64,000 nucleotides of DNA from an uncultured Verrucomicrobiae bacterium (GCA_963756875.1 CAVWPA010000001.1:640001-704000); one strand, 5' to 3'. Positions 7,388 through 21,351 are shown, counted from the stretch's first letter. The notes: a model not told the origin generated them from the letters alone. Numbers and translations are program-made.

Positions 7388-8368
7388 ATGCGTCTTGCCA
7401 CCATTCTTCCAGAGAACGGAACGGGGCCGGTCCCGGCGGTCTCCGTGGACGCTCATAATTGGGTGCCGCTCCATCCCTTCCTTCGTTTTTTTGGCGTAAA
7501 AGGGTTGCCGGAAGACCCGCTTGAGCCCCTGGAACTGTTTCTTCCGATCCTGATCCCGCGGTTCGCGGAGTTCACGCGGAAGGTGAACGACTGGCCGGAG
7601 CACGGCCGTGTTTTTCAAAAAAAGGGCGGCAAAACGGTGCGCGCGCGGAGATTTCTCCCACCGATCAACAAGCCGCCTACTTTTCGCGATTTCTACGGGT
7701 TCGAACAGCACGTGCGAAACACGCGGGCCCGGCGCGGACTCGACATGATTCAGACGTGGTATGAAATCCCTGTCTTTTATTTCTCCAACGCAAACTCGCT
7801 TGTAGGAAACGACGCTGGGATTTTTGCGCCGGCCGGGTCGAACGAGTTGGATTACGAGTTGGAACTTGGTCTTGTGATCGGCAAACCCGGACGCGACATT
7901 CCCGTGGAGCAGGCGTGGGATTATGTGGCGGGGCTTACCGTTATCAACGGCTTCAGCGCCCGCGATCTGCAGCGCGCGGAGATGGAGGTCGGCCTTGGAC
8001 CGGCAAAAGGAAAAGATTTTGCCACTGCGGTTGGGCCGGTGCTGGTAACGCGCGATGAATTTTCCGACAAGATCGACCGGGAGAGAATCTCCCTCGATAT
8101 GCGGGCGCGCGTAAACGGCCGCGAGCTTTCTCTCGGAAACAGTTCGACGTTGTTTCATTCTCTTCCAAGGATGATCGCGCACGCCTCGCGTGACGCAGAT
8201 CTGTTCCCGGGTGCGGTAATCGGCAGCGGCGCGATTGGCGCCGGTTGCATCTGGGAACTCGGTCCGGAAAATACCGGCGGCTGGTTGAAACCCGGCGACG
8301 TCGTCGAGCTTGAAGTCGAGCGGATTGGAACTCTGCGAACGACCATCACGTCGCGGCCGTCTGCGTGA
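7388..8368 (+). CDS. Fumarylacetoacetate hydrolase family protein
   Basis: RDFYGFEQH, PVFYFSN, LDYELELG, SARDLQ, KGKDFAT, GDVVELEVERIG. Confidence 0.9.
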   Translation: MRLATILPENGTGPVPAVSVDAHNWVPLHPFLRFFGVKGLPEDPLEPLELFLPILIPRFAEFTRKVNDWPEHGRVFQKKGGKTVRARRFLPPINKPPTFRDFYGFEQHVRNTRARRGLDMIQTWYEIPVFYFSNANSLVGNDAGIFAPAGSNELDYELELGLVIGKPGRDIPVEQAWDYVAGLTVINGFSARDLQRAEMEVGLGPAKGKDFATAVGPVLVTRDEFSDKIDRERISLDMRARVNGRELSLGNSSTLFHSLPRMIAHASRDADLFPGAVIGSGAIGAGCIWELGPENTGGWLKPGDVVELEVERIGTLRTTITSRPSA

Positions 8369-8389
8369 TTTCGCGCGGGCCGTGTACGC

Positions 8390-8482
8390 AAAAGGCCGCA
8401 CAGCGAAAGCAATTCGCGGTGCGGCCTTTTGTTCTGCGAATTAAGGAAACCGCATTGCGGGGTCGAACCACAATGCGGCCTC
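8390..8482. terminator. Two adjacent hairpins; probable bidirectional intrinsic terminator between the FAH gene and peptide gene 1
   Basis: AAAAGGCCGCAC...GTGCGGCCTTTT (8390-8430) and ACCGCATTG...CAATGCGG (8446-8482). Confidence 0.75.
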
Positions 8483-8495
8483 GTCGTTAGTCAGG

Positions 8496-8708
8496 TTAGT
8501 TCTTCGAAGCGCCACCGCCGAGGCTGGATGAGCCGCCGCCGAGACTGGAGGAACCGCCACCGAGGCTGGAGGAACCGCCGCCGAGGCTCGAGGAGCCACC
8601 GCCGAGGCTGGATGAGCCGCCGCCGAGATAATGTCCGCCGCCGCCTTTGGCATCCTTGGATGGTTTGAGGTCACGAACTTTGATGTTTTTCTTAGTCTTT
8701 TTAGCCAT
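8496..8708 (-). CDS. Secreted precursor peptide 1 (70 aa): basic double-glycine leader + GGHY(LGGGSSS)5LGGGASKN core
   Basis: ATG at 8708 after an A-rich spacer; MAKKTKKNIKVRDLKPSKDAKGG|GGHY...; 21-nt repeat with synonymous variation; paralog at 9419-9601; downstream of a C39 exporter. Confidence 0.85.
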   Translation of the reverse strand: MAKKTKKNIKVRDLKPSKDAKGGGGHYLGGGSSSLGGGSSSLGGGSSSLGGGSSSLGGGSSSLGGGASKN

Positions 8709-8725
8709 GTTGTTTTCTTCTTTCT

Positions 8726-8914
8726 TTATTTGTTTGGGTTTGTTGTTTGTGTTGGTTGAGTGGCACCGAGCAACAATTGAACGCCCGCCAACGATATTCT
8801 GTTTTGGAATCAGGTCGCCGGGCGGACCAATCTTTCCTTTCTGCGCTTTGGCCGCTGGCCGACTGCCTCTCCGGCGGGCGCATTTGTTTTGTTTTTGTTT
8901 TTCGGTGTGTTCAC
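8726..8914 (-). pseudogene. Probable third leader-bearing peptide, broken by two compensating 1-nt indels (or read errors)
   Basis: GTG 8914 MNTPKNKNKTNAPAGEAVGQRPKRRKERLVR / GDLIPKQNIVGG / RQLLLGATQPTQTTNPNK* (TAA 8726-8728); total length 189 nt is a multiple of 3; DL-x5-I-x-GG matches the other two leaders. Confidence 0.5.
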
Positions 8915-8928
8915 TTTCGACCGCCCTA

Positions 8929-8947
8929 TTACCACCATTCGTGCCAG
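8929..8947 (-). promoter_or_regulatory. Sigma-54-like -24/-12 box for peptide unit 1
   Basis: Minus strand CTGGCACGAATGGTGGTAA (GG-N10-GG instead of GC); near-identical to 9662-9680. Confidence 0.65.
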
Positions 8948-8988
8948 CTCTTTGCGGGTCCGAAAAGTTCACTGCGTTTCTTCTTCTA

Positions 8989-9001
8989 AATCAGGTAGTT
9001 A
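8989..9001 (+). promoter_or_regulatory. IHF-like binding site, unit 1
   Basis: AATCAGGTAGTTA fits WATCAR-N4-TTR; lies between -24 box and enhancer dyads. Confidence 0.55.
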
Positions 9002-9046
9002 CAAAACGAAGATTTCACAATTGCGTAAAATCAACGTCGCCACGAC

Positions 9047-9085
9047 GGTCTAATTATGAGGCCGGGCTGGTCTATTATTGAGGCC
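9047..9085. promoter_or_regulatory. Tandem dyad enhancer (UAS) candidate, unit 1
   Basis: GGTCTAATTATGAGGCC (9047-9063) and GGTCTATTATTGAGGCC (9069-9085), 22-bp period. Confidence 0.6.
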
Positions 9086-9119
9086 CCGCCCGGCGCAGAT
9101 GTGGCGCGTTTTTTGTAAA

Positions 9120-9275
9120 CGTGTTTCCTTGGCTCCTGGGCATGATCGCACCCCTTCCGCGACGCGGATCTCCTTGTCACGATTGGCCGCGGCGCCGTTG
9201 GCCGGCGACGTCGTCGAGCTGGAGATCGAGCGGATCACGCTGCAGACGAAGATCACGTCGCGTCCCTCTTTGTAA
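9120..9275 (+). pseudogene. Decayed duplicate of the 3' end of the FAH-family gene
   Basis: GDVVELEIERITLQTKITSRPSL* versus GDVVELEVERIGTLRTTITSRPSA* of 7388-8368; upstream ATGATCGC...GACGCGGATCT also aligns. Confidence 0.8.
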
Positions 9276-9322
9276 CGTTCCCCTGGGGCGGGTGTATGTA
9301 CACGTAGATCACAATGTACATA

Positions 9323-9412
9323 AAGAGCCGCACAGCGGATATATCGCGGTGCGGCTCTCTGTTCTGCAAATGATGGAAACCGCACTGCGGGATGGAACCG
9401 CAGTACGGTCTC
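9323..9412. terminator. Duplicated double-hairpin terminator downstream of peptide gene 2
   Basis: AGAGCCGCAC...GTGCGGCTCT and ACCGCACTGCGG...CCGCAGTACGGT, homologous to 8390-8482. Confidence 0.7.
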
Positions 9413-9418
9413 GTTTCG

Positions 9419-9601
9419 TCAATTACGTGATGCGCCGCCGCCGAGGCTCGATGCGCCACCGCCCAGGCTCGATGCGCCGCCGCCCAGGTTCTTGGAGCCA
9501 CCACCGAGGTGGTGAACTCCGTGGCCGTGCTGGCCGCCACCTGTGACATCTTTCTTCACTTTAAGGTCACGGACTTTGTTTTGCTTCTTTCCTTTTTTCA
9601 T
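9419..9601 (-). CDS. Secreted precursor peptide 2 (60 aa): basic double-glycine leader + GQHGHGVHH-LGGGSKN-(LGGGASS)2-LGGGASRN core
   Basis: MKKGKKQNKVRDLKVKKDVTGG|; AAGGA RBS upstream; paralog of 8496-8708. Confidence 0.85.
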   Translation of the reverse strand: MKKGKKQNKVRDLKVKKDVTGGGQHGHGVHHLGGGSKNLGGGASSLGGGASSLGGGASRN

Positions 9602-9661
9602 GGGGTTTGGGTCCTTTCTGTTTGGTTTGACTCTGCATCTGCATTTACTTCGGTTGTTCGG

Positions 9662-9680
9662 TTACCAGCATCCATGCCAG
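9662..9680 (-). promoter_or_regulatory. Sigma-54-like -24/-12 box for peptide unit 2
   Basis: Minus strand CTGGCATGGATGCTGGTAA (GG-N10-GG). Confidence 0.65.
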
Positions 9681-9721
9681 ATCTTCGTATGTGCGGAAGC
9701 GTTCCTTTGCTTCCTGTTCTC

Positions 9722-9734
9722 AATCAGATACTTG
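9722..9734 (+). promoter_or_regulatory. IHF-like binding site, unit 2
   Basis: AATCAGATACTTG fits WATCAR-N4-TTR; same offset from the -24 box as in unit 1. Confidence 0.55.
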
Positions 9735-9779
9735 CGAACCGAAGATTTCCAGGCCGTGTAGGAACGGAATCGTTAAGCC

Positions 9780-9818
9780 GGTCTAAGTTTTGGTCCACGC
9801 TGGTCGATTATTAGGACG
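9780..9818. promoter_or_regulatory. Tandem dyad enhancer (UAS) candidate, unit 2, overlapping the 3' end of the activator gene
   Basis: GGTCTAAGTTTTGGTCC (9780-9796) and GGTCGATTATTAGGACG (9802-9818), 22-bp period. Confidence 0.55.
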
Positions 9819-10832
9819 CTGGTGGCTCCGTAACTGAGCCGCATTTCGCAGGTGTCTCGCCAGTGTCGCCCGGGAAATGCCGAGCAGCTTCGCCGTGCGC
9901 CTCTGGTTGCGGTTCGTTTGTTCGTACACAAAGTGAACATGCCTTTTGACGGCGCTGGCCAGGGAGAGATCGACCTTGTTCTGATGCGCCAGGGGTGTGT
10001 TTTGAGGCACGTATGGGCTGTGGTTGCCATCTCCTGGCAATCGATCGGGTTCGAGATCGGGAGGGAAGACGACATGCTGTGGAAGAACGACCCGGCCGTC
10101 GCAGAAAAGTGCCATCGTTCGCACCGTGTGATTTAGTTCGCGAAGATTGCCGCGCCAGTCGTGATGAACGAGTTTCTCCATCGCCTCGGGATGAATCGCG
10201 CTGATCGTCTTGCCTTCTTTCGCCGCTGCAGTGGTTAGTTCTCCAGCGATCAAAGCGGGCAATTCTTCGAGACGTTCCCGTAACGGCGGAATGAGCAGCG
10301 TGAGTCCGTTGAGCCGCTGATAGAGGTCTTCGCGAAATTTTCCCTGCCGAACGCGCTCTCGCAAAGAGCAGTTTGATGCGCACAGAATTCGGGCGTTCGA
10401 TTTCAGCATTTGCTCGGAGCCAAGCCGCTCAAATTCGCCGTACTCAAGCACGCGCAGAATCTTAACCTGGGCAAGCGGGCTCATTTCCGAAATCTCATCG
10501 AGGAAAAGAGTCCCTCCGTCGGCAAGTTCAAATTTTCCTTTGACGCTCTGTTGCGCGCCGGTGAACGCCCCTTTCTCGTGCCCAAAAAGCTGGCTTTCGA
10601 GCAGCGTGTCGCTCATGGCCGACGCGTTGAAGGAAATAAACGGCCCGTGCGACCGCGCAGACGAATTATGGATGGCGTGCGCGAGGAGCGTTTTTCCGGT
10701 GCCGGTTTCGCCCAGAAGCACGACTGGCACCTCCGATATTGCGGCGAGTCTCGCCAGGCGCAGACAACGCGCCATTCCCGCGTTGTCGGTCGTGAGATCT
10801 TCGATTTTGAGTCGGTCCAGTGATTCTTGCAT
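9783..10832 (-). CDS. Sigma-54-dependent transcriptional activator (AAA+ and Fis HTH, no N-terminal sensor/receiver)
   Basis: GETGTGKT, ESQLFGHEKGAFTGA, LFLDEI, FREDLYQRL, WRGNLREL, NQRRTAKLLGISRATL. Confidence 0.93.
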   Translation of the reverse strand: MQESLDRLKIEDLTTDNAGMARCLRLARLAAISEVPVVLLGETGTGKTLLAHAIHNSSARSHGPFISFNASAMSDTLLESQLFGHEKGAFTGAQQSVKGKFELADGGTLFLDEISEMSPLAQVKILRVLEYGEFERLGSEQMLKSNARILCASNCSLRERVRQGKFREDLYQRLNGLTLLIPPLRERLEELPALIAGELTTAAAKEGKTISAIHPEAMEKLVHHDWRGNLRELNHTVRTMALFCDGRVVLPQHVVFPPDLEPDRLPGDGNHSPYVPQNTPLAHQNKVDLSLASAVKRHVHFVYEQTNRNQRRTAKLLGISRATLARHLRNAAQLRSHQRPNNRPAWTKT

Positions 10833-10845
10833 GAATGCTGCCGGT

Positions 10846-12033
10846 TTACCGCTTTATGTTTTCGCGCAACTGACGGATTGGCTCGAATGCGTACTCGACC
10901 ATCGTGCGGCTGCCGACGATGATGTGCGCTTCTCCCTTCATTCCAACGCGCAACTTGAGAGATTTGGCGGACCCTCCTGGGATATTCGTCCGATCGAGCG
11001 ATGCCAGGGCGATAAACCGGGAGCCATCGGGCGAAGTGACGGCCGAAGGGCTGATCCAATCCAGCCGGCCATCTACGGCGCCGTAACGCTGGTACGGAAA
11101 CGCATCGAAGAAATAGCGGACCTTTTGTGCAACCGCCAGTTTGGGCAGACCGGTTTCGTTTATGATCATGCGCGCACGCAACTTGGTGTTCTGCTGCGCC
11201 AATTGACATAGCACCTGGCCTTGTTGAACAACGCTCCCAACGGTCCGCTGATCCACCGAGATGACGGCGCCATCATAAGGGCTGCGCACCACGAGCAAAT
11301 TCTGCTGCGCATTTTCCAGGTCCGCCTTGAGAGCGGCTATGCGCACCTTCAGTTTTTCAATTTCGGCCTGGTGCTCGCTGCGCGTGTTCGCATGCTCTGT
11401 ATCCATCCGCTGGCGATCGAGGATGCTTTGCTGAAGCGTTCGCTGTGCGACGCTGAAATCTTTTTCCGCGCCGGCCGCCTCGAGCCGAAGCTTAATGAGA
11501 TCGACGTCCGACATGCCGCCTTCCAGCGCCAGCTTTTCCATTCGTGTGGCAAGATCGCGGCTCGTCTTGGCGTAGTTTTCCCGGAACTTTACTTCACTTT
11601 TCGCTTGTTCGATCTCTTCCAGCTTGATCTTCAGCTGCGCCGCGTAGGCGATTTCGCCTCGCTTCAGGCTTTGTTCTCTGGTGTGCAGATCTTCCGTCAA
11701 GGTCTGCATTTGTGTGTCCCAGCTGCGGATTTCGTCTGACCGCAAAGCAAACAGTTCCGCTCCCTTTTTGACAGTCTGGCCTTCGCGGACTGAGACACGC
11801 GTAATAATACCCTGATGCGGCGATTGAATCGGGTCGGCTCCGGTGGCCGGGACCAAAATGAATGGGCAACGGACTGTCTCTGGCAGGCGCATGACGATTG
11901 CCATCACAAGGGCTAATAGGAATGCCCCCAGCAGGCACCAGCCAGCGGAACGAATGATCCACGCAGGCGGTTCTTGTGGAAGCATTTCCGATTCGGTGTC
12001 GATGGACGCGCGCGATAGGGATGTCGTGCTCAT
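10846..12033 (-). CDS. HlyD-family membrane fusion protein
   Basis: N-terminal TM, IQSPHQGII..VREGQTVKKG, coiled coil, VRSPYDG, FDAFPYQRYG, LRVGM. Confidence 0.92.
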   Translation of the reverse strand: MSTTSLSRASIDTESEMLPQEPPAWIIRSAGWCLLGAFLLALVMAIVMRLPETVRCPFILVPATGADPIQSPHQGIITRVSVREGQTVKKGAELFALRSDEIRSWDTQMQTLTEDLHTREQSLKRGEIAYAAQLKIKLEEIEQAKSEVKFRENYAKTSRDLATRMEKLALEGGMSDVDLIKLRLEAAGAEKDFSVAQRTLQQSILDRQRMDTEHANTRSEHQAEIEKLKVRIAALKADLENAQQNLLVVRSPYDGAVISVDQRTVGSVVQQGQVLCQLAQQNTKLRARMIINETGLPKLAVAQKVRYFFDAFPYQRYGAVDGRLDWISPSAVTSPDGSRFIALASLDRTNIPGGSAKSLKLRVGMKGEAHIIVGSRTMVEYAFEPIRQLRENIKR

Positions 12034-12039
12034 TGTAAC

Positions 12040-15000
12040 TCAGATACCCAACTGTTGACTCGAGAGATAGTAATAGAGGCCCCGCTGTGCCATCAGTTCG
12101 TCGTGCGTTCCTACTTCGGCGACGCTTCCTTTTTCCAGGACGACGATCGCATGCGCTTCGCGGATCGTGCTGAGGCGATGCGCGATCACAATCGTGGTGC
12201 GTCCCGCCATTAATCTTCCAAGATTGTCCTGAATGGCGCGCTCCGATTCCGTGTCCAGGGCGCTCGTTGCTTCGTCAAAAATCAAAACGGGGGGATTATT
12301 GTAAATCGCACGGGCAATCGCGATTCGCTGTTTTTGTCCGCCGGAAAGGGAAAGGCCCGATTCGCCAATTTTCGTTTCGTAACCAAGCGGCAGCCGCATG
12401 ACAAAATCATGTGCCGCAGCGGCCTGGGCTGCGCTCAGGACACGATCGAGATCCGGCTCCGGATCGCCGAATGCGATGTTGCGCGCGATCGTTTCATTAA
12501 ACATGTGGTTTTCCTGCAGGACCATTCCGATATGCCGGCGCACATCGCGATAGTTGAGAGTTTTTAAATCGACGTTGTCGAAGAAGATGGTTCCCTCGGT
12601 CGGCTCGAGCAGTCCGGCAATCAGCTTGATCAGCGTTGTTTTCCCGCAACCGCTCCGACCCACGAACGCCACCATTCTGCCCGGCGCGAGATCGAGGTTT
12701 ACATTCGTCAGAATGTTCGGCGCTTCCGGGCCGCCGTATTTGAAACAAACACCGCGCAATTCGATCCGGCCTTCCAGACTATGCACCGGCGCGAGCTGGG
12801 AGCGGTCGTGCCCTTGCTCCGGCTCCTGCTCGAAAATGTCGTTCAATCGATTGAGCAGCACGGAGGCCAGTTGCAGGCTGTCCCAAACGCCGAGCGTGCG
12901 CAGGATGCCGGAGTAGGCCATTGCCGTCAGCGAGCTAAACGCGACGAACCCGCCGACGCTCAAATGTCCGTGAATGACTTGCGTGGCGCCCACCCAGAGA
13001 AAGATCGCCGTGGAAAGCAAACCAATGCTCTGCAGCACGCTGTCGTAAGACATGACAATAAAGCCCGCTCTGAACATCTGCTTCGAGACCGACAGGAACT
13101 CGTTCAGCATCGCGTCGCGAAACGCGCTTTCGGCCGATGCAGCTTTGACCGCCTCGATCCCTTTAATGGCGTCGATTTGATGCGAACTGTATTTGCCCTG
13201 GCTTTCTTCCACGCCCGCAAACAACGGGCGTAGCACTTTGACGGAGAAAATCATCAGCCCCACGTACAGTGGCGTGGTTGCCAGAAACGCGAGCATCAGC
13301 AGCGGGCTGTAGAGGCCCATCAGGCAAAGCGCGCCGGACAGATAAATGAGAGCCAATAGTGCGCCGATCCCTTGTTGTACCGCGAACTGTCGGACCTGGC
13401 GTGCGCCGTCGAGTCGCCGCTGAATATCGCCTGTGCGCCGGCTTGTAAAATAAGTCATGGGCAGCGAAAGAAGTTTGCGGCTCAGAAAATCAAGCACCGC
13501 CGTATCCAGCCGCACCGCCGCAAAGGCGAGGAGGTACTCCTGCGCGAGCGTGCACAGTTGCACGAATACGATCGCGGCGAGCATTCCGAGCAGGATGATG
13601 TGGAGCAGTCCGATGTCGTTTTCCACGATTACTTTGTCGACGACTATTTGCGTGAAAACGGGGAAAAGAAGTTGCAAAAGGCTAACGGCCACGGCCAGTC
13701 CGAGCACTTGCAACAGGATTACCTTGAATCGCGCGAGGAACGGGAGGATCCACGCCAGCGCCGGCTTGCTCTCCGGCGCAGTTTCAAATGCAGTCGTGTA
13801 GTCAAATAACGCGGTGTATCCGGTCCACTTTGCTTCAAATTCGCGCCGAGGAACTTTGCGCAACCCAAGCGCCGGGTCCGCTACGCGCACGAATTCCGCA
13901 TCGACATCGTAGAGGACGATCCAATGGTTACCTTCCCAGTGAACGATCGCCGGCAACGGCATTGTCGACAGATTGCGCAGTGACACCTTCAGCGCGCGAG
14001 CCGCCAGCCCCAGCTCCGATGCAGCCCGCACGAGCGCCTTCAAACTGGTGCCGTCGGTCGCCGTGTGGCAAAGCTGCCGAATGCGAGCCAGGCTCACTTT
14101 TCTTCCGAAATGACGGCAGATCATGCCCAGGCTCGCCGCGCCGCAATCCATTTCGTCGATTTGTTGAACGTGTTCGATCTTGCGGATGCGCTTCCCGCGT
14201 TTGCGGAAATAGCCCTGCTCGTCCGCGAACGGGTCTTCCCCGTCTTCGGCTTCACCCGGCGGCTGTTCGCCATCGAGCTCGGTTTTGTCAGCCCGTCGCG
14301 TCTCGGCCGGAAGCAATTCCTCCGTAAAATCGAGCGGAATTCGCGCTTCCGTTCTCGCCTGATAAATTGCCAGCCGCTCGCCAAGCAGTTTGTCGAATTC
14401 CGGGAAACGGCCTCGCAATTCCAGAACGGAATTCGGATCGAGCGCGAGCAGTTTGCAGTCCGTAAACGCTTCTACCGACGCTCCTCGCGGCGCGCCGATC
14501 AAGATCGATAATTCGCCAAAAAAATCGCCCTCGCGATAAAAAGCGAGGTTGGTTTCGTGCCCGCTCCCATTGGTAAACGCGCGCGCGCGCCCTTTCTCGA
14601 TCACGTACATCGGGCCGGCAACATCGCCTTCCCGGATGATTAAATGGCCTTTGGAGACCCCGAGAGGCGTCAGCTTGTCGATCATACTGCGTAACGCCGG
14701 CCCTGGAAGCCGTCCGAAATTGCTGAATTGATACAGAAAGCTCTGGACGGCGCGGTTTCGCCCAATCATCTCGATGTAGTGCCGAAGATCGGGAACCTGT
14801 TGGACCAGCTGGAGAAAAGCCTCTCGGTCGATTCGCAAAACTTCCACTGCTGTGCTGCATCGTACCGTCGCTGAGCGCGTGCCGCCCTCCGCCAGCGCCG
14901 CTTCGCCGAAGCTGTCGCCAGGTTTTAGGATCCCGAGCGGAATTTCTTCTCCGTCGGATTTAATTTTAAGCGCGCGGGCGCGTCCGTGCGTCAGGATGTA

Positions 15001-15153
15001 AAACGAATCGGCCGGATCGTCCTGCCTGACAATGATGTCTCCGAAATCGTAGTGTTCTTCCTGCAAAAGCGGTTCCAGCGCGGCAAAATGCTCGTCGGAA
15101 AGAAATCGGAACGCTGAGGACCGCCTGATAATCTCGGTATCGCGCGCACTCAT
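12040..15153 (-). CDS. Peptidase C39-containing ABC transporter (PCAT) with two N-terminal cyclic-nucleotide-binding domains
   Basis: Two CNB motifs (FGEAAL...RSATV; FFGELSI...RGASV); C39 QQIDEMDCGAASL, HWEGNHWIV, VADPA; TMD; GRSGCGKT, LSGGQKQR, DEATSALD, AHRL. Confidence 0.95.
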   Translation of the reverse strand: MSARDTEIIRRSSAFRFLSDEHFAALEPLLQEEHYDFGDIIVRQDDPADSFYILTHGRARALKIKSDGEEIPLGILKPGDSFGEAALAEGGTRSATVRCSTAVEVLRIDREAFLQLVQQVPDLRHYIEMIGRNRAVQSFLYQFSNFGRLPGPALRSMIDKLTPLGVSKGHLIIREGDVAGPMYVIEKGRARAFTNGSGHETNLAFYREGDFFGELSILIGAPRGASVEAFTDCKLLALDPNSVLELRGRFPEFDKLLGERLAIYQARTEARIPLDFTEELLPAETRRADKTELDGEQPPGEAEDGEDPFADEQGYFRKRGKRIRKIEHVQQIDEMDCGAASLGMICRHFGRKVSLARIRQLCHTATDGTSLKALVRAASELGLAARALKVSLRNLSTMPLPAIVHWEGNHWIVLYDVDAEFVRVADPALGLRKVPRREFEAKWTGYTALFDYTTAFETAPESKPALAWILPFLARFKVILLQVLGLAVAVSLLQLLFPVFTQIVVDKVIVENDIGLLHIILLGMLAAIVFVQLCTLAQEYLLAFAAVRLDTAVLDFLSRKLLSLPMTYFTSRRTGDIQRRLDGARQVRQFAVQQGIGALLALIYLSGALCLMGLYSPLLMLAFLATTPLYVGLMIFSVKVLRPLFAGVEESQGKYSSHQIDAIKGIEAVKAASAESAFRDAMLNEFLSVSKQMFRAGFIVMSYDSVLQSIGLLSTAIFLWVGATQVIHGHLSVGGFVAFSSLTAMAYSGILRTLGVWDSLQLASVLLNRLNDIFEQEPEQGHDRSQLAPVHSLEGRIELRGVCFKYGGPEAPNILTNVNLDLAPGRMVAFVGRSGCGKTTLIKLIAGLLEPTEGTIFFDNVDLKTLNYRDVRRHIGMVLQENHMFNETIARNIAFGDPEPDLDRVLSAAQAAAAHDFVMRLPLGYETKIGESGLSLSGGQKQRIAIARAIYNNPPVLIFDEATSALDTESERAIQDNLGRLMAGRTTIVIAHRLSTIREAHAIVVLEKGSVAEVGTHDELMAQRGLYYYLSSQQLGI

Positions 15154-16244
15154 TCAGCGGAGTCTGCGGAAGGCAGACGCGGTTCGATGTATTTCCCCGT
15201 TAGCTCGGAAAAGTGTCGTTCAACCAGCCGTCGATCGATCCGTAGCTGCACCTCCGGATCGTCCGGTTGCGGTTCCACTTTCTTGACGATTCGATAAAGC
15301 TCAAAGCCGTCGCCTCGCGCGACCGGTTCCAGGATGTCGTCCACCGCGACGCTTAGAAATCTCTGCTGCAAATCGGGCGGCACATCCTGGCGCAGGAAAG
15401 AAACGTTGTTGTAAGGGTATCGACCCTCGGCGGCCACTTCCTCCATCGACATCCCGTCTTCGCGAATGCAAAACAAAGCTTCCTTGGCTGCATCGCGCGA
15501 TTCTACCTGAATGACCTCCGCCTCGAATCGCGTAAGCGGCATTCGCATCGTGGCCAGCTCTTTTTGTCGTGCCTGCGGCTCGAGCAACGTTTCTCTCCGG
15601 CGCCGGTACGCAGCTTCCATGGCCAGCGTTTCTTCAAACCACTGCGCGTCACGCCCGAGCCGACTCAACCAATCGGAGAGCTCTGCCTCTGTGATCTTGG
15701 TTCGATCGAGAAATCGTTGCCGCTCGGCGGCGTTTGTCTCCGTATCGACACTTTCGTTCGCTTGTGCCGCCAGGGCCGCCAGATGCCACATCAACTCTGT
15801 CGTCAAAAGATCCAGCTGACCCGACAAAATTAATTCGGCGATGAAAAGTTCGCGCAGTTCAGGCGGCGCTGAAAGGAGATCGATCGCGCCCGGCTCGATG
15901 GCTTCGTTTACGGCGTTGATCCAATACTGCCGCGCGAGATGATCGCCGAGATGGTCAAGATTCAAGCCGCGAACCGCCAGCCATTGTTCGGTTTCCTCCG
16001 CCGTGATCAGGTCGCGCTGGTAACGGAAAGCTTCCGCGTCGCTGTCGATCGCATCTTGATCCAACTCCAATTCAAGCGCGTCTGCCCTCTCCTCCGCTTT
16101 GATCCGACGCAGAAATTCGCTCCAGGTCGGCCCGATCTCGCCGCGAAAGACTGCGGCGTGGATCGCGTCGCGCGCTTTGTCACTCCTGGGGCCGCATGCG
16201 CAGACGACCAGGTCGTCAAGCGAGAGTGATTGGAGATCGCTCAC
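15150..16244 (-). CDS. PpiC/SurA-related (peptidylprolyl isomerase-like) peptide maturation/secretion protein
   Basis: AEAFRYQRDLITAEETEQWLAVRGL motif and C-terminal parvulin-like segment (SMEEVAAE...DVPPDLQQRFLS...ILEPV...GFELYRI); overlaps the transporter start (ATGA). Confidence 0.65.
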   Translation of the reverse strand: MSDLQSLSLDDLVVCACGPRSDKARDAIHAAVFRGEIGPTWSEFLRRIKAEERADALELELDQDAIDSDAEAFRYQRDLITAEETEQWLAVRGLNLDHLGDHLARQYWINAVNEAIEPGAIDLLSAPPELRELFIAELILSGQLDLLTTELMWHLAALAAQANESVDTETNAAERQRFLDRTKITEAELSDWLSRLGRDAQWFEETLAMEAAYRRRRETLLEPQARQKELATMRMPLTRFEAEVIQVESRDAAKEALFCIREDGMSMEEVAAEGRYPYNNVSFLRQDVPPDLQQRFLSVAVDDILEPVARGDGFELYRIVKKVEPQPDDPEVQLRIDRRLVERHFSELTGKYIEPRLPSADSAE

Positions 16245-16397
16245 GAAAGCGACTTTCTAAATTTTTTTGCGCAAAAAGTCGAGCCAATCGTGGCGCCAAT
16301 TTTAGGCCAGTTGTTACTGTCGCATAAACAACTCGACGTGTGACTGTTATGCAAAACCGGTTGACGAGAGGTCGCAGTAGACTGTTCACTTTGAGCC

Positions 16398-17312
16398 ATG
16401 CCGCTGACCGCTTCCCTTCGCCACCTGCTCGCGCTCTCCATTGACTACGCCGGAATGTTTCCGCCGTGCAGTCTGGCCTTGACGCCGGCGCTGGAAAATC
16501 AGGCCATTTACGTGCGGTCAACCGATGCCTGGATGCTTTCCGGGTTCGTCCTGCCGGTGGCGCAGTTTCACGCCGCCGGCAACAGTCTTTCCCGCTTCGA
16601 TTCGGAGCATCCTTTAAAGATCTCCGCGCTGGGGCCCAAGGCCAGTGACGCAACTGATTTTATCAACGCTTTGAAGAGCACAATCGAGACGATTCATTCC
16701 TTCGAGGCGCAACACGGCGATTCTGTTTCGGTCGTTCAACTTGAAATGCCTTTGCCAGCGGAATTTGACGACGTTCTGCTACTCACGGACGCGAGGACGA
16801 TCGTCGGCGGCCTTACGGTTTTTTGGGAGGCCCCCGCAAATACGGCGGAACGCATCATCGCGTTGCTGGCCGAGCACCGATCCGGGAAGGCCCCCTTTGG
16901 TTATAAGCTGCGGACCGGCGGCGTGACCCCAGATGCATTCCCGGCGCCGGCGTCGGTTGCGCGAGCTCTGATGGCCTCTGCGAAACATGAGGTGCCGATC
17001 AAGTTCACCGCCGGTCTGCATCATCCGCTGCGACAATTTCGACATGAAGTGAACACGAAGATGTACGGATTTCTTAATGTACTCGGTGCGGCCGTGCTGG
17101 CAGCCGAGCATCGTTGGAACGAGCAACAGACCCTGGCGATGCTTGAAGACGAGAACGCCGCCTCGTTTGCCTTCGACGACAATTTCTTTGCCTGGCGTGA
17201 ATGGAAGATCGAGAATCGGCAGATCGAAGCGCGCCGGAAATTCGTGAGTTCGTTCGGCAGTTGTAGTTTCGACGAACCGCGCGAAGATTTGCGCGCCTTG
17301 AATTTATTGTAG
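16398..17312 (+). CDS. Conserved hypothetical protein upstream of fumarylacetoacetase
   Basis: IDYAGMFPP, KLRTGG, KFTAGLHHP, GFLNVL, SFGSCSFDEP motifs; 304 aa. Confidence 0.75.
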   Translation: MPLTASLRHLLALSIDYAGMFPPCSLALTPALENQAIYVRSTDAWMLSGFVLPVAQFHAAGNSLSRFDSEHPLKISALGPKASDATDFINALKSTIETIHSFEAQHGDSVSVVQLEMPLPAEFDDVLLLTDARTIVGGLTVFWEAPANTAERIIALLAEHRSGKAPFGYKLRTGGVTPDAFPAPASVARALMASAKHEVPIKFTAGLHHPLRQFRHEVNTKMYGFLNVLGAAVLAAEHRWNEQQTLAMLEDENAASFAFDDNFFAWREWKIENRQIEARRKFVSSFGSCSFDEPREDLRALNLL

Positions 17313-17444: not shown

Positions 17445-18707
17445 ATGTCTCGCAAATCCTTCATCGAAGTTTCGCCCGAGTCCCACTTTCCGCTCGAAAA
17501 TCTTCCATTCGGGATCTTTCGGCCGCGCACGGGCGCGCCCCGTGCCGGAGTCGCCATCGGCGAGTACGTTGTCGATCTCTCGCTCCTCGAGGGAAAAGGG
17601 CACTTTCGTTCACCCGAATTTCAAGATCGAAATGTCTTCGCGCAGGATTCGTTGAATGCGTTCCTGTCTCTCGGTCGCCCGGCCTGGCGCAAAGCACGAG
17701 AGATTCTTCAACATTTGCTCGACGCCGGCACGCCCACATTGCGTGATGACGCGCAGCTTCGGCAACAGATCTTGCTTCGACAACGCGATGTCACCATGCA
17801 GCTGCCGGTGCGCGTCGGTAATTACACCGACTTTTATTCGTCTTATCATCATGCGTTCAATGTCGGCACGATGTTTCGCGGGCCGGAAAACGCGCTCATG
17901 CCGAATTGGAAATGGCTGCCGGTCGCATATCACGGACGCGCCAGTTCCGTTGTGGTAAGCGGCGCGGCTGTTCGCCGGCCAAGTGGGCAAAGCAAGCCGC
18001 CCGACGCGGGCCAGCCGGTCTTTGGCCCAAGCAAAAGCCTCGATTACGAACTCGAGATGGCGTTCCTGGTGGGGCCTGGAAATTCGTTAGGCGAACCCGT
18101 CCCAATCGAGCGCGCGGCCGACCATATTTTCGGACTGGTTTTGATGAACGACTGGAGCGCGCGCGATATTCAGGCGTGGGAATACCAGCCGCTTGGCCCT
18201 TTTCTGGCCAAGAATTTTTGCACGAGCGTTTCGCCGTGGGTGGTCACGCTGGAAGCGCTCGAGCCGTTCCGCAAACCGCTCCCTCCGCAGGACCCTGCGC
18301 CGCCTGGCTACTTGCGCGCAGCGAAAGATTTTACGTTCGACATTCATCTCGAGGCGCTGCTGCAAACGGCAAAAATGCATGCCCCCCACGTCATTACTCG
18401 CACGAATTTCCAAAATCTTTACTGGAGCATTTCGCAGCAACTCGCCCATCATACGGTGGGCGGCTGCAATCTTGAACCGGGCGACCTGCTTGCCAGCGGA
18501 ACAATCAGCGGTCCCACCGAGGACTCTCGCGGATGCATGCTGGAGCTGACCTGGCGCGGCGCAAACCCGTTAAAGTTGCCCGATGGAGAAGTGCGCAAAT
18601 GGCTCGAGGACGGCGACACTCTGACAATTGCGGGGTGGTGTCAGGGCGATGGCTATCGTGTCGGATTCGGCGAAGTGAGCGGCCGAATTATCGGTAGCGA
18701 CACGTGA
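17445..18707 (+). CDS. fahA: Fumarylacetoacetase
   Basis: FPLENLPFG, YTDFYSS, PVAYHGRASS, LDYELEM, NDWSARDIQAWEY, GTISGP, GFGEV. Confidence 0.95.
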   Translation: MSRKSFIEVSPESHFPLENLPFGIFRPRTGAPRAGVAIGEYVVDLSLLEGKGHFRSPEFQDRNVFAQDSLNAFLSLGRPAWRKAREILQHLLDAGTPTLRDDAQLRQQILLRQRDVTMQLPVRVGNYTDFYSSYHHAFNVGTMFRGPENALMPNWKWLPVAYHGRASSVVVSGAAVRRPSGQSKPPDAGQPVFGPSKSLDYELEMAFLVGPGNSLGEPVPIERAADHIFGLVLMNDWSARDIQAWEYQPLGPFLAKNFCTSVSPWVVTLEALEPFRKPLPPQDPAPPGYLRAAKDFTFDIHLEALLQTAKMHAPHVITRTNFQNLYWSISQQLAHHTVGGCNLEPGDLLASGTISGPTEDSRGCMLELTWRGANPLKLPDGEVRKWLEDGDTLTIAGWCQGDGYRVGFGEVSGRIIGSDT

Positions 18708-18732: not shown

Positions 18733-21351
18733 TCAGCGGTTTCGTCCTGTTTTCGTAAAGAATGCCGTGGCGATCGCGCTGGGGTTGTATCCGGACCTGT
18801 AAGCCTCCGCTTTAATCATCTTAGAGGCGCGTATGGTGAATGGGCTGGTGTAGCGCGTTGATGCGGTCGTCGGATTGGCCCCGTTTGTTGTGTAATAGAT
18901 CGTTGCGCCTGACGTCGAGCACGACAGCGATATCTTCAGTTTTCCCTTAAACGTTCCCCCGTTGGGAGAAATGTTCGGCGTGGATACGGTAGGGATCGGG
19001 GTAGGAGTCGGTGTCGGAGTCGGAGTCGGCGTTGGCGTTGGCGTTGGCGTTGGCGTTGGTGTCGGAGTAGGAGTCGGCGTAGGCGTCGGTGTAGGCGTCG
19101 GCGTAGGCGTGGGTGTCGGTGTAGGCGTCGGTGTCGGAGTGGGTGTAGGAGTAGGAGTAGGAGTAGGCGTTGGAGTTGGCGTTGGAGTTGGAGTTGGGGT
19201 TCCAGAAGTAACACTGAGAATCGCGGGACCAGTTCGGGCTTGTCCATCGGGATTTGTTACCGTCACATTGGCTTGTCCAGAGGAAGCTCCGTTGGTGTTC
19301 AAGTCCAGAACGATATGAGTCGGGTCCGTGTAGGTGACGGAATTGACGACGATGCCGTTCGTTAATGTGGCGCCTATGCGATTCGGGAACCCTGAACCTG
19401 GGTCGAAGAAACCCGAGCCCGAAATTGAAGTTCCGGTAATCGTAACATTTACCGATGATTCTCCCGTCGCCACGCTCGAACTGGCCGAGGAAGGGGTCGC
19501 CGGTGGCGGAGCGATGAGCTGGGTGAATTGCACGCCGTAGGTATTCGTTCCGTTGCAAAACTCCTGGACCGTCCACATCGTCATGTCGTCGGTGGGGTCG
19601 ACGCTGGTAAAGGAGTAGTCGCCCCAGCGCCGGCCGTAGCTACCTCCGGTGTCCCCTGAGGGGTTGTAAGCTGTGTTGCTCGACGTTAAAAATGTCGGAA
19701 CGCTCAGCGCACCGGCCGGATCTGATGCCAGACGGCCGCTAAACGCGGCGTCTACATGATATGGCGTTCCGGCGGTGCTGAAGCCGACAACGGCATGCCC
19801 CTGACCCGAAACCACGACCGACGGAATCCAATATTGGCGCGCCGATGCGACACTTGCCGCAGAATCGAAAATCGTGCCCGATTCAACAACGACTGGATTG
19901 CCTCCGTTGTCCGAACTGCGAATCCCGTTTAGCTCGTACCAGCGAACAGCGTCCCGCCGCTGAGAGTCGCTGCTGGATGCGACACCGGCAGAATCGACGG
20001 CGATATTATGAGCCGTCCAGAGCTTGCCGTTGCGGATATGCGCGGCAAAGAGCCGGTCGTCGAGCGAATCGAGTTGTCCGTTGGTGCCCCGGGTGTTGCC
20101 GAGATGATCGACAGTAATTGGAAAAGCGGTTGCGACGACGGTAATCGGGATGTTGCCTGAGATGGTTGGTGCGCCGCCTGGGTTAAACACACGCCGCAGG
20201 ACCAGGCGGCCGCGGAAACTGTCGCTCGGGCCGATAAAATATCCTTCAGTCGCGGTTGGATCGTAATTGTCCACTCCCCGCGGGCTGTCCGGTCCATCAC
20301 CTTCGGTGATCAGCCTGCGAAACGCCGTCGCGACCACCGGGCCGCCGTTCAGGATAGAGCTTTTTCGAATGACGAAAACAGACGTATTTGAAAACGCTCC
20401 GGACGAGGCAATAAACATGTTGCCGCCGACATAAAGCGCGTTGTTATCGACCCCGAGCGAGTCGTAATCGAGAAACTCGCCGGTGTTTGCGCCGCCAACC
20501 GTGTTTTGCTGGACGTAATAAAAGGACCACACCGTATGGCTGGTGATGACGCCCACGCTGGCGGCATCCGATACCGCGATGAGAATACGGTTCGGATGGT
20601 CCCCAATGCTCGAACTCGAGCTGCTGGGAACGTCGATGATCGTCAGTATCCAGCGGTTCGACAGACGATCGTAACGAATCTGCGGATCGCTTGCAAAATT
20701 AACGCCCCGCCTGCTGACCGGCGTCATTACGGAAGAGAAAAAGAAATCTGGATTTGCCGAGAGCACCCCGTCGGGAAAACCGCTTGCCTTGCTAAAACTT
20801 ACCAGGTCTCCGTTAACAAAGACGACAAACTGCGTGGGGCCGACCGCACCCATCGAATCCGGTGGAAACGCCCCCGTTTGATTTGGCCCGGTGATGCCAT
20901 CGTGGTTTATTCCGATGGTTTGTGGAGCGCTGCCGTTAATCGACGTGTCGGCGTTCACGCTCATGGTGGTCGACGACGCGGAAGAGGAAGCCTTGATTGG
21001 CGACTTGGGCCAGCGGGAGAGTGGCAATGCATCCGGATCTTGGGGGCGGTTTTCCCGGCCTGGAATCTCCAATTCTCGTTTCAAGTAAACGTAGTCCCTG
21101 TGGTGACCTACTGCCGCCGCCTGGGTCATGATTTCGGCGGTCGATCTTTGGGTCGCGTGTTCTCCGACAGACATCTGGCCCTGGATCCGCGCCGAGGCGC
21201 CGGTCGTCACCGAGCTTACCGTTTGACCGGAAACGGAAGCGGCCGCTGCTACGATGAATCCGGCAAGCACCGAGACGACCGATCTGGGACTCACCCGGAC
21301 CTCTCTTTTAGTGAACGCCAGGCGTTTTTGAGTTCTCATTTTCCTGGGCAT
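18733..21351 (-). CDS. Secreted protein: large N-terminal domain, Ig-like segment, long Thr-Pro linker, C-terminal chitobiase/FN3-associated domain
   Basis: Signal peptide; [10 protein letters not shown]...RWGDYS core; about 34 TP repeats (18998-19203); PNISPNGG...[11 protein letters not shown]...YTSPF. Confidence 0.8.

Follow-up and report, generated by a model that had tools for sequence, protein, structure and literature searches.

A conserved chromosomal cassette of Chthoniobacterales and Candidatus Udaeobacter with a putative role in the export of hypervariable GG-leader peptides

Several described systems share parts with the locus presented here, a cassette of an uncultured Verrucomicrobiae bacterium that encodes a peptidase-containing ABC transporter (PCAT), three companion proteins and small precursors with a Lys-rich leader ending in GG. 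A PCAT, HlyD and TolC form the export route of class II microcins, and in microcin systems of the CvaAB-TolC type the HlyD-type adaptor is joined by TolC supplied in trans. Streptococcal blp/com loci encode a GG-leader inducing pheromone beside variable peptides. NHLP/Nif11-type leaders and those of the prochlorosins are long and enzyme-derived and precede cores modified by LanM or radical SAM enzymes. Among regulators, sigma-54 activators of the PspF type consist of an AAA+ domain and a helix-turn-helix (HTH), with no regulatory domain. The cassette was analysed within a DNA stretch of 64,000 nucleotides (nt) (GCA_963756875.1 CAVWPA010000001.1:640001-704000), called the window hereafter and numbered from its first letter. 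We read it as a regulated PCAT-HlyD peptide export module with a new class of cargo; for the whole mechanism a probability of about 0.55 seems appropriate, and the export machinery taken by itself is considered highly probable.

Two systems come closer to individual components. HetC of Nostoc PCC 7120 is the one studied PCAT with a domain binding cyclic nucleotide monophosphates (cNMP); HetC depends on this domain, for which binding of ppGpp was shown in vitro, and no substrate of HetC is known (PMC10986499). Proteins of family TIGR04500 ('PpiC-related peptide maturation') occur in graspetide clusters, for instance that of rosaritide (PMC13097080, PMC8939145). No description of the present cassette was found in the literature searched, subscription journals lying outside its scope. 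PCAT/HlyD export, HetC, the TIGR04500-family protein MirC and PspF-like activators are known singly, and their combination is undescribed in that literature. What is new in this combination is a short Lys-rich leader, cores constrained in composition and free in sequence, a conserved companion peptide and sigma-54 control.

The source genome measures 2.69 Mb and is 87.6% complete. Four minus-strand open reading frames (ORFs) lie head to tail in it and encode a PpiC-like protein of 364 amino acids (aa) (15150-16244, GTG start at 16244), a PCAT of 1037 aa with two N-terminal cNMP-binding domains (12040-15153), a HlyD-family periplasmic adaptor of 395 aa with an N-terminal membrane anchor (10846-12033) and a sigma-54 activator, or bacterial enhancer-binding protein, of 349 aa (9783-10832). 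They are separated, in this order, by a 4-nt overlap, 6 nt and 13 nt, the last between the HlyD stop and the activator ATG. Two intact small genes follow on the same strand, type-1 precursor B (60 aa, 9419-9601) and type-1 precursor A (70 aa, 8496-8708), together with a broken gene for a second type of precursor (type 2, 8726-8914). The PCAT has candidate GG-leader substrates, two intact genes and a broken one, encoded nearby. It holds the only C39 domain of the genome, and peptides A and B are the only ones of their kind, with the only leader motifs of this sort, in its 2.69 Mb.

The PCAT matched four Pfam families, namely cNMP_binding (PF00027, 155.6 bits in two stretches), Peptidase_C39 (PF03412, 127 bits), ABC_membrane (PF00664, 143 bits) and ABC_tran (PF00005, 126 bits). 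Its best equivalog, the NHLP-family bacteriocin export ABC transporter TIGR03796, scored 541 bits, under the cut-off of 853.3. The C39 domain, fused to the ABC exporter, keeps Gln331 and Cys337 (QIDEMDCG), His410 (GNHW) and Asp426 (VADP), and the ABC domain is complete with Walker A, signature motif, Walker B and H-loop. Both cNMP domains (FGEAALAEGGTRSA, FGELSILIGAPRGA) keep the Glu and Arg of what we take to be the phosphate-binding cassette. The adaptor matched HlyD_3 (PF13437) with 65 bits, above the cut-off of 22, and TIGR01843 with 149 bits, under the cut-off of 209. No outer-membrane factor is encoded in the cassette. The genome search revealed four TolC-family (OEP) genes elsewhere, one of which would have to supply the outer-membrane channel in trans. 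The rest of the genome also gave as many as nine matches to cyclase domains and further proteins that bind cNMP; this, together with the retained Glu and Arg, makes nucleotide gating of the exporter plausible.

An earlier note, made from this DNA alone, had described four tightly coupled minus-strand genes followed by small genes whose products carry a Lys-rich GG leader and a core of LGGG(S/A)SS heptads, and the ORF calls agreed with it on coordinates, on spacing and on both small ORFs. Its C39 Cys (DCG), His (NHW) and Asp (ADP) were recovered, with Gln331 in addition, and it was right that the cassette is devoid of a TolC-like channel and of any maturase gene. Its term 'self-contained' held only in part: the cassette encodes its own regulator, but TolC would have to come from elsewhere and the activator is without a sensor domain. 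Likewise, its inventory of small genes was correct for the two type-1 genes and had missed the conserved type-2 precursor with its frameshifts.

With its cNMP domain placed N-terminal to a C39 domain that retains the catalytic Cys and His, and with the ABC part behind it, the PCAT has the architecture of HetC (PMC10986499). The likeness, judged by architecture only, is not complete, since HetC is drawn there with one cNMP domain and the PCAT of the locus has two such stretches. Furthermore, the paper reports neither an adaptor gene nor a recognisable GG-leader substrate near HetC, whereas HlyD, regulator and substrates are adjacent here (PMC10986499). Nucleotide gating of a PCAT nevertheless has a precedent in this system, because the HetC cNMP domain is needed and binds ppGpp.

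The distribution of the cassette was evaluated in one genome per species, where 224 stretches encoding a relative of the PpiC-like protein were found and the best 79 loci analysed, and in 80 metagenome loci scanned with a five-sequence alignment. Synteny was counted only at loci whose contig reaches far enough. With few exceptions, the 79 loci bear the labels Chthoniobacterales, Udaeobacter or Verrucomicrobia. Downstream of the PpiC-like gene, which always adjoins the PCAT gene, the order of genes is conserved, with the PCAT at 64 of 64 loci, HlyD at 54 of 59 and the activator at 46 of 47; metagenome loci of sufficient length showed the same cassette and were mostly of the Udaeobacter type, with one distant member, L110. 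The flanks are syntenic as well: a divergently oriented gene for a 304-aa protein was found at 32 loci, a fumarylacetoacetase gene at 26 and a glutamate dehydrogenase gene at 17. In the window the 304-aa gene (16398-17312, plus strand) diverges from the cassette and adjoins the fumarylacetoacetase gene (17445-18707), a gene of that kind being its constant neighbour at the related loci; its product has no Pfam or NCBIfam match. The GC content of the locus, 0.53-0.61 against 0.568 genome-wide, bears no compositional sign of an island. On these comparisons the cassette is a vertically inherited chromosomal unit of Chthoniobacterales/Udaeobacter and not a mobile island.

Three loci, L003, L026 and L031, had been binned as Terriglobales, Terriglobia and Nitrospirota, respectively. 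Since L003 equals L002, L026 equals L025 and L031 is sister to Udaeobacter-type loci, such identity or near-identity makes them probably mis-binned contigs rather than evidence of transfer. In 401 genomes sampled evenly over the phylum, strong matches were restricted to the family of the window (2 of 2 genomes) and to one other family (2 genomes). There, a PpiC-like gene is followed by a cNMP-PCAT, 37-42% identical over the full length, with neither HlyD nor activator, so the pair of PpiC-like protein and cNMP-PCAT is the older module.

Type-1 precursors combine a constant leader with a hypervariable core. Precursor A has a 23-aa leader (MAKKTKKNIKVRDLKPSKDAKGG, 8640-8708) ending in AKGG and a 47-aa core (8499-8639) of LGGGSSS heptads, and precursor B a 22-aa Lys-rich leader (9536-9601) ending in VTGG and a 38-aa core (9422-9535). 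Both cores show a periodicity of 21 nt or 7 aa, with period identities of 0.85 and 0.61. Downstream of the activator, 50 type-1 precursors (49 distinct) were collected from 39 loci including the window; both the metagenome loci and the protein collection supplied further ones. Among 25 aligned sequences the leader ..KKxIKVRDLKP(K/S)KDAKGG is nearly invariant, its V, D, L, K, D and GG being invariant throughout. Mean pairwise identity reached 77% for a 16-aa leader block; for the cores it was 22%, compared with 20% for shuffled cores (1081 pairs). Tandem repeats (period identity of at least 0.5) make up 20 of the 49 cores in units of 3 to 10 residues, such as HQMQG, GQTGH, PTQHG, STPHG, GATRQQ, GSSLS/GSSMS, AATG and TNVG, and the LGGGSSS of the window is a unit of the same kind.

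The cores are constrained in other respects. All 49 are 12-47 aa long save one of 121 aa; none is shorter than 12 aa, compared with 33% in shuffled DNA (binomial 4e-9), and one exceeds 47 aa, compared with 21% in the shuffles. They consist of G 22%, S 11%, T 9%, Q 9%, N 6% and H 6%, with 1.7% D+E and no Cys, and 32 of 48 are entirely free of D and E, while His makes up at least 10% of the residues in 13 of 48. The shuffles gave fractions of 0.10 for G, 0.02 for N, 0.067 for D+E and 0.018 for C, against 0.22, 0.06, 0.017 and 0 in the cores; shuffles and the other two frames alike hold far less G and N and far more P, R, D/E and C. This constraint on length and on frame-specific composition suggests selection on bulk features, which would keep a polar, flexible, non-acidic and Cys-free peptide of about 20-45 residues regardless of its sequence. 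By eye, many cores end in Asn (..SKN, ..SRN, ..AHN, ..GRN, ..HNHN) and those of the clade of the window start with GGH, which may represent a terminal signature. A diversity-generating retroelement was considered as the source of the variability and rejected, there being no reverse transcriptase in the cassette.

Wherever enough sequence was available, leader-bearing type-1 ORFs were found 3' of the activator at 36 of 44 related loci; because of this conservation the small ORFs are regarded as real genes rather than chance ORFs. No family of Pfam or NCBIfam matches the type-1 peptides. Several expectations of the earlier note can be judged from these comparisons. A search for synteny of PCAT, HlyD, PpiC-like protein and activator in relatives did return a conserved gene order, the small ORFs do recur beside homologous transporters (the 36 of 44 loci), and a peptide class that its author did not recognise is indeed foreign to both family collections. 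A dedicated export system with its own regulator also gained support from the conserved order, from the leader genes and from a sigma-54-type promoter at 29 of 31 loci. Two of its ideas had to be given up: the 'island' is not mobile, its flanks being syntenic in relatives and its GC content not deviating, and the Gly/Ser heptads are no hallmark of the class, only one lineage's version of a hypervariable core.

The type-2 precursor is the conserved companion of these peptides. About 220 nt between promoter and type-1 ATG are strongly conserved, and in 45 loci they encode a GG-leader protein of about 60 aa, typically VSAPKNKKNAPAGESGNQRPKRRKDK-LIRLDDLIPKQDVTGG-(R/H)QLLFGATD followed by a tail rich in T, N, Q and K. 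GTG is the start codon in 44 of 46 calls, its codons vary synonymously at third positions in the alignment (GAT/GAC, CTG/CTC/TTA, ATT/ATC), and it was present at 41 of the 44 related loci with enough sequence. The protein collection contains 1121 relatives, all of them named 'hypothetical'. The type-2 leader shares (I/V)x(L/V)xDL(I/K)Pxx(D/N)(V/A)xGG with type 1; unlike that of type 1, its core is conserved. In the window, the gene (8726-8914) retains the conserved GTG (8912-8914) but differs from the 28 aligned loci by a 1-nt deletion at 8820/8821 and a 1-nt insertion at 8780/8781, and a TGA (8810-8812) falls in the shifted stretch between them. Among contigs of three sequencing runs, a public one of 214 nt matches 8590-8803 without difference; it spans the insertion and ends short of the deletion. 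The insertion is therefore found outside this assembly too, even if the contig may derive from the same sample. Other matches to read contigs were short cross-matches to the FAA-hydrolase fragment mentioned below. The window copy of the gene is probably non-functional; were the insertion genuine and the deletion not, an in-frame fusion of the type-2 leader with the type-1 gene would result. Programmed frameshifting was rejected on account of the TGA and of several substitutions around it.

Canonical sigma-54 promoters follow the consensus TGGCAC-N5-TTGCW, with GG at -24, GC at -12 and a spacing of 10 nt. A related 16-mer, TGGCAY-N6-TG[AGT]T, was found 209-245 nt upstream of the type-1 ATG at 29 of 31 loci and in both copies of the window, copy A being TGGCACGAATGGTGGT (8931-8946, minus strand), a conserved motif, and copy B TGGCATGGATGCTGGT (9664-9679, minus strand), with a canonical -24 and a non-canonical -12. 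The motif lies about 20 nt upstream of the type-2 GTG and occurs only 18 times in the whole genome. These 29 of 31 loci and the window copies retain the TGGCAY of the -24 element and the G at -13, and the C of the -12 element is replaced by G, A or T. A sigma-54-type promoter for the precursors is thus proposed with moderate confidence only, because the -24 element is canonical but the -12 element keeps its G and not its C. The alignment also shows conservation of a block further upstream, ..AAATCT..GCGTAAGT.., of which the window has two copies; in copy A it contains an imperfect inverted repeat TTAC..N..GTAA (8995-9030, minus strand), and in copy B (9725-9760, minus strand) it is supported by the direct repeat D2 (9662-9749 versus 8929-9016, 70%). 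These candidate blocks may be the binding site of the activator.

The activator matched Sigma54_activat (PF00158) with 208 bits, its AAA+ domain beginning at about residue 15 and GAFTGA standing at residue 88; the C-terminal HTH matched HTH_8 with 19.8 bits, below the cut-off of 22. The PspF model TIGR02974 matched over the full length with 239 bits, below the cut-off of 443. The protein therefore resembles PspF in having only AAA+ and HTH, with GAFTGA, and differs from it in the sub-cut-off score, in the cassette having no PspA-like negative regulator and in its presumed target, a peptide operon. The genome contains one rpoN and four intact sigma-54 activator genes; a fifth (G000:C1:110919-111412, minus strand) is apparently broken, with a TAA inside the AAA+ domain. 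As for the four-gene operon, comparison of 27 loci and the window showed strong conservation ahead of the PpiC-like gene in one stretch only, GGCTCGACTTtctt...TAgAAA. In the window it reads TCGACT-17 nt-TAGAAA (16254-16282, minus strand), about 10 nt upstream of the GTG at 16244, and we infer a sigma-70-like promoter function; a scan of the region with a stock consensus returned no sigma-70 promoter. Neither the sigma-54-type motif nor, over the 1.5 kb that follow the activator, a recognisable precursor was seen in L056 and L065, the two most divergent cassettes, which may have substrates encoded elsewhere or equipped with a different leader.

HlyD has been deleted at five loci (L032, L034, L036, L037 and L051) through at least two different junctions, and these loci do not form one clade among all rows of a quick IQ-TREE phylogeny of the PpiC-like protein. 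L034, L036 and L037 keep both ends of HlyD; in L032 and L051 only 21 nt separate the PCAT and activator matches. Type 1 was absent from three of the five, reduced to a start-less relic in one and altered by a leader substitution in one, whereas type 2 was intact in four of the five. Counted as presence of type 1, this makes 1 of 5 HlyD-less against 35 of 39 HlyD-bearing loci (Fisher p = 0.002, a value overstated by the relatedness of the genomes). The joint loss of HlyD and type 1 hints that type-1 products do leave the cell through the outer membrane.

The PpiC-like protein matched TIGR04500 with 39.4 bits (E = 4e-10; cut-off 180) and Rotamase_2 with 18 bits, below cut-off, so that the link to TIGR04500 at which the earlier note had hinted is a true relationship that stays outside the family as delimited. 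All of 16 other relatives likewise scored under the TIGR04500 cut-off, 15 of them at 20-82 bits and one with no match. An AlphaFold2 model built from 70 diverse relatives reached a predicted local distance difference test (pLDDT) of 96 and a predicted template modelling score (pTM) of 0.90, and its best Foldseek matches were PEB4, PrsA and SurA (E = 9e-6 to 1e-3). The TM-scores of these matches were low, 0.2-0.37, because the domains are arranged differently; the model does show the SurA-like chaperone/parvulin architecture of family TIGR04500. Neither a signal-peptide-like nor a hydrophobic N-terminus was seen in the sequence, and the net charge of -30 contrasts with +8 and +9 for the type-1 leaders. 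On its sequence and its model the protein is thus an acidic cytoplasmic chaperone-type protein related to TIGR04500 graspetide partners, and it is proposed to be a leader-binding partner or chaperone. A prediction of its complex with type-1 precursors, run without controls, scored 0.15 against a mark of 0.32, which weighs neither for nor against binding. The large protein collection holds 1086 relatives, the named ones being Verrucomicrobia or Candidatus Udaeobacter, and the family comprises 1064 cluster representatives at E up to 0.001. The PCAT is the sole visible partner of the protein in the Udaeobacter cassette, and the wider family would seem to serve systems for GG-leader peptides as a partner that handles the precursors. 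MirC is comparable in being cytoplasmic, with an N-domain and a SurA-like chaperone/parvulin part, and in standing beside a TIGR03796-like PCAT and a precursor (PMC13097080). The locus protein differs from it by its 39 bits versus 180, by the lack of an ATP-grasp maturase and by cores without the needed Asp/Glu.

None of the 79 cassettes was seen to encode a maturase. The window's own genome, as far as it is complete, gave no SPASM and no YcaO match, and its best match to the ATP-grasp synthetase TIGR04187 scored 72.7 bits against a cut-off of 350, control genomes matching likewise. An ATP-grasp graspetide synthetase of the kind that partners TIGR04500 proteins is thus absent from the cassette and not recognisable in the genome, and the Asp/Glu acceptors of graspetides are as scarce as reported above. 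With cores devoid of Cys and poor in Asp/Glu, thioether, azole and graspetide chemistry can be excluded as what generally happens to them; enzymes acting in trans on Ser/Thr, by glycosylation or otherwise, are possible. What the locus has in common with NHLP/Nif11 systems and prochlorosins is a highly conserved GG leader with hypervariable cores behind it, more than one precursor per locus, and a PCAT nearest to TIGR03796. It differs from them by its short Lys-rich leader, by the lack of a maturase, by Cys-free low-complexity cores and by an exporter that stays under the TIGR03796 cut-off.

The mechanism that we favour would run as follows. A first operon, transcribed from the sigma-70-type promoter, would provide PpiC-like protein, cNMP-PCAT, HlyD and the sensor-less activator, and the latter would turn on the sigma-54-type promoter of a second operon yielding the type-2 peptide first and then one to three type-1 peptides (two here). 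The acidic chaperone-like protein would hold the very basic leaders of both kinds of precursors, the C39 domain would cut after ..KDAKGG or ..KDVTGG, and the ABC pump, gated by a nucleotide second messenger on the cNMP domains, would expel the 47-aa and 38-aa cores together with HlyD and a TolC homologue as its partners. Type-1 cores would remain unmodified, disordered and polar, and would act through bulk properties instead of a sequence-specific receptor or target, as selection appears to bear on their length and composition and not on their sequence; a specific signal is more likely to be found in the type-2 peptide. What the data show directly is gene content, conservation, catalytic motifs, the conserved promoter motif and the leader and core statistics; that the precursors are cleaved and exported, that a messenger gates the pump, that the chaperone-like protein binds leaders, and what the products do, are predictions.

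A number of observations weigh against this reading. The activator consists of AAA+ and HTH only, with no sensor or receiver domain, and the -12 element of the proposed promoter is without the canonical GC, whereas seven canonical TGGCAY-N5-TTGCA sites exist elsewhere in the genome. Cores of a metagenome subclade are just 9-10 aa long, and type 1 was not found at four HlyD-bearing loci (L019, L056, L065 and L069) by a pattern that is blind to divergent leaders. The case for bulk-property action of the cores is statistical throughout. A search of sequencing runs returned no RNA run that contains the stretch, and a single soil-metagenome DNA run with 12% of its words. The remaining points concern modification, and would fit peptides that are ribosomally synthesized and then modified by an enzyme encoded elsewhere, recruited by the PpiC-like protein as MirC is for MirB. 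MirC, of family TIGR04500, is required for the ATP-grasp graspetide synthetase MirB and co-purifies with it (PMC13097080). Moreover, at the metagenome locus L110 a 31%-identical relative of the PpiC-like protein lies between a PCAT and the C-terminal part of a radical SAM/SPASM maturase (L110:2-799, plus strand; CcpM-like, TIGR04068, E = 1.4e-33), and the cores are rich in Ser/Thr. A maturase in trans is possible since such relatives work with or adjoin maturases and the genome is 87.6% complete. The whole of this explanation is nevertheless unlikely: no SPASM or YcaO protein is found in the genome, the lone ATP-grasp match is far below its cut-off, none of the 79 cassettes includes a maturase, and Cys-free cores with 1.7% D+E offer no conserved motif as an enzyme target.

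The remaining alternatives accept the small genes in other roles or deny them. Type-1 peptides could be weapons of the microcin or bacteriocin kind or kin-recognition tokens, made hypervariable by an arms race, with type 2 as the inducing pheromone; of the alternatives this one is rated highest, though improbable in itself. It draws on the PCAT-HlyD-TolC route of class II microcins, on one conserved and several variable GG peptides under one promoter, all presumably served by one PCAT as in blp/com, on cores unrelated between species and on their Gly-richness, shared with many class II peptides. Its difficulties lie in the cargo, which is polar, repetitive (20 of 49 cores) and almost free of hydrophobic or acidic residues rather than amphipathic, with constraint on composition and length instead of fold or motif. 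They also lie in a single-copy, syntenic and vertically inherited locus, unlike typical bacteriocin islands, which has a cytoplasmic SurA-like partner and sigma-54 control by a sensor-less activator in place of a two-component system with its sensor kinase; no immunity-type gene was seen in the conserved cassette, whose conserved genes, up to the flanking housekeeping genes, are only the four and the peptides, and which was not searched systematically for small membrane ORFs. A second possibility, rated slightly below that of modified peptides, is an intracellular switch coupled to secretion, in which the tails serve as translocation handles, the leader or uncut precursor is the active entity, for example by titrating the chaperone-like protein or the activator, and the cNMP-gated PCAT converts a second-messenger signal into sigma-54 transcription. 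Conservation confined to the type-1 leader, tails constrained merely in length, polarity and non-acidity, and an activator that needs a partner for want of a sensor are in its favour, as is the proposal, in the HetC paper, that an N-terminal cleavage product acts on an intracellular regulator (PMC10986499). Strong leader conservation is, however, normal in GG-leader families, where recognition by the peptidase explains it; HlyD loss accompanies type-1 loss, which fits products crossing the outer membrane, and the interactions are hypothetical. A broader version, a second-messenger-gated 'secrete-to-signal' switch with its information in the retained basic leader, in the exported type-2 peptide or in both, seems to us about as doubtful as modification in trans. 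Finally, low-complexity small ORFs without Pfam or NCBIfam match are easily spurious, and the exporter might serve a larger protein encoded elsewhere. Leaders conserved in amino acids, place and promoter across dozens of species, frame-specific composition, constrained length and a genome with no other such GG-leader motif or C39 domain make this very improbable.

Other features of the window concern the origin of the second precursor and the surroundings of the cassette. A tandem duplication of about 0.9 kb copied type-1 gene, promoter, terminators and a fragment of an FAA-hydrolase-family gene, leaving out the type-2 segment, and created the second type-1 precursor. Two terminator-like hairpins lie 3' of precursor B (9324-9414, minus strand; inverted repeat I2, direct repeat D3), and two others are common to precursor A and to the convergent FAA-hydrolase-family gene at 7388-8368 (8389-8478, minus strand; inverted repeat I1). 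An ORF at 9078-9275 ends like that convergent gene, and the pseudo-copy of its 3' end (9202-9275, plus strand) is supported by the direct repeats D5 (91%) and D4 (79%). No RNA family was found by Rfam at 8200-16500 with E up to 0.1. Beyond the flanking genes, a secreted-looking protein of 872 aa (18733-21351, minus strand) has an extended perfect (Thr-Pro)n linker close to its C-terminus, and the same DNA encodes a (GV)n ORF on the opposite strand.

In the PCAT-HlyD export reading, four elements come together of which each had been known alone: a nucleotide-sensing PCAT, a SurA-like partner, sigma-54 control and GG-leader peptides. Graspetide synthesis has so far been the only known setting of such a SurA-like partner (PMC13097080). 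For a HetC-like nucleotide-sensing PCAT, the locus supplies clear candidate substrates. A constant Lys-rich leader followed by cores that keep only their length and a polar, Gly-rich and non-acidic composition is unusual among exported bacterial peptides. Were a secrete-to-signal switch true, it would offer the first identifiable substrates for the HetC class of PCATs and a new signalling logic in a highly abundant soil lineage. Bacteria around Candidatus Udaeobacter, which combine small genomes with an almost complete lack of cultures, rank among the most abundant in soil. Kept at a fixed chromosomal place in at least 224 species-level genomes, the cassette likely matters for their ecology.

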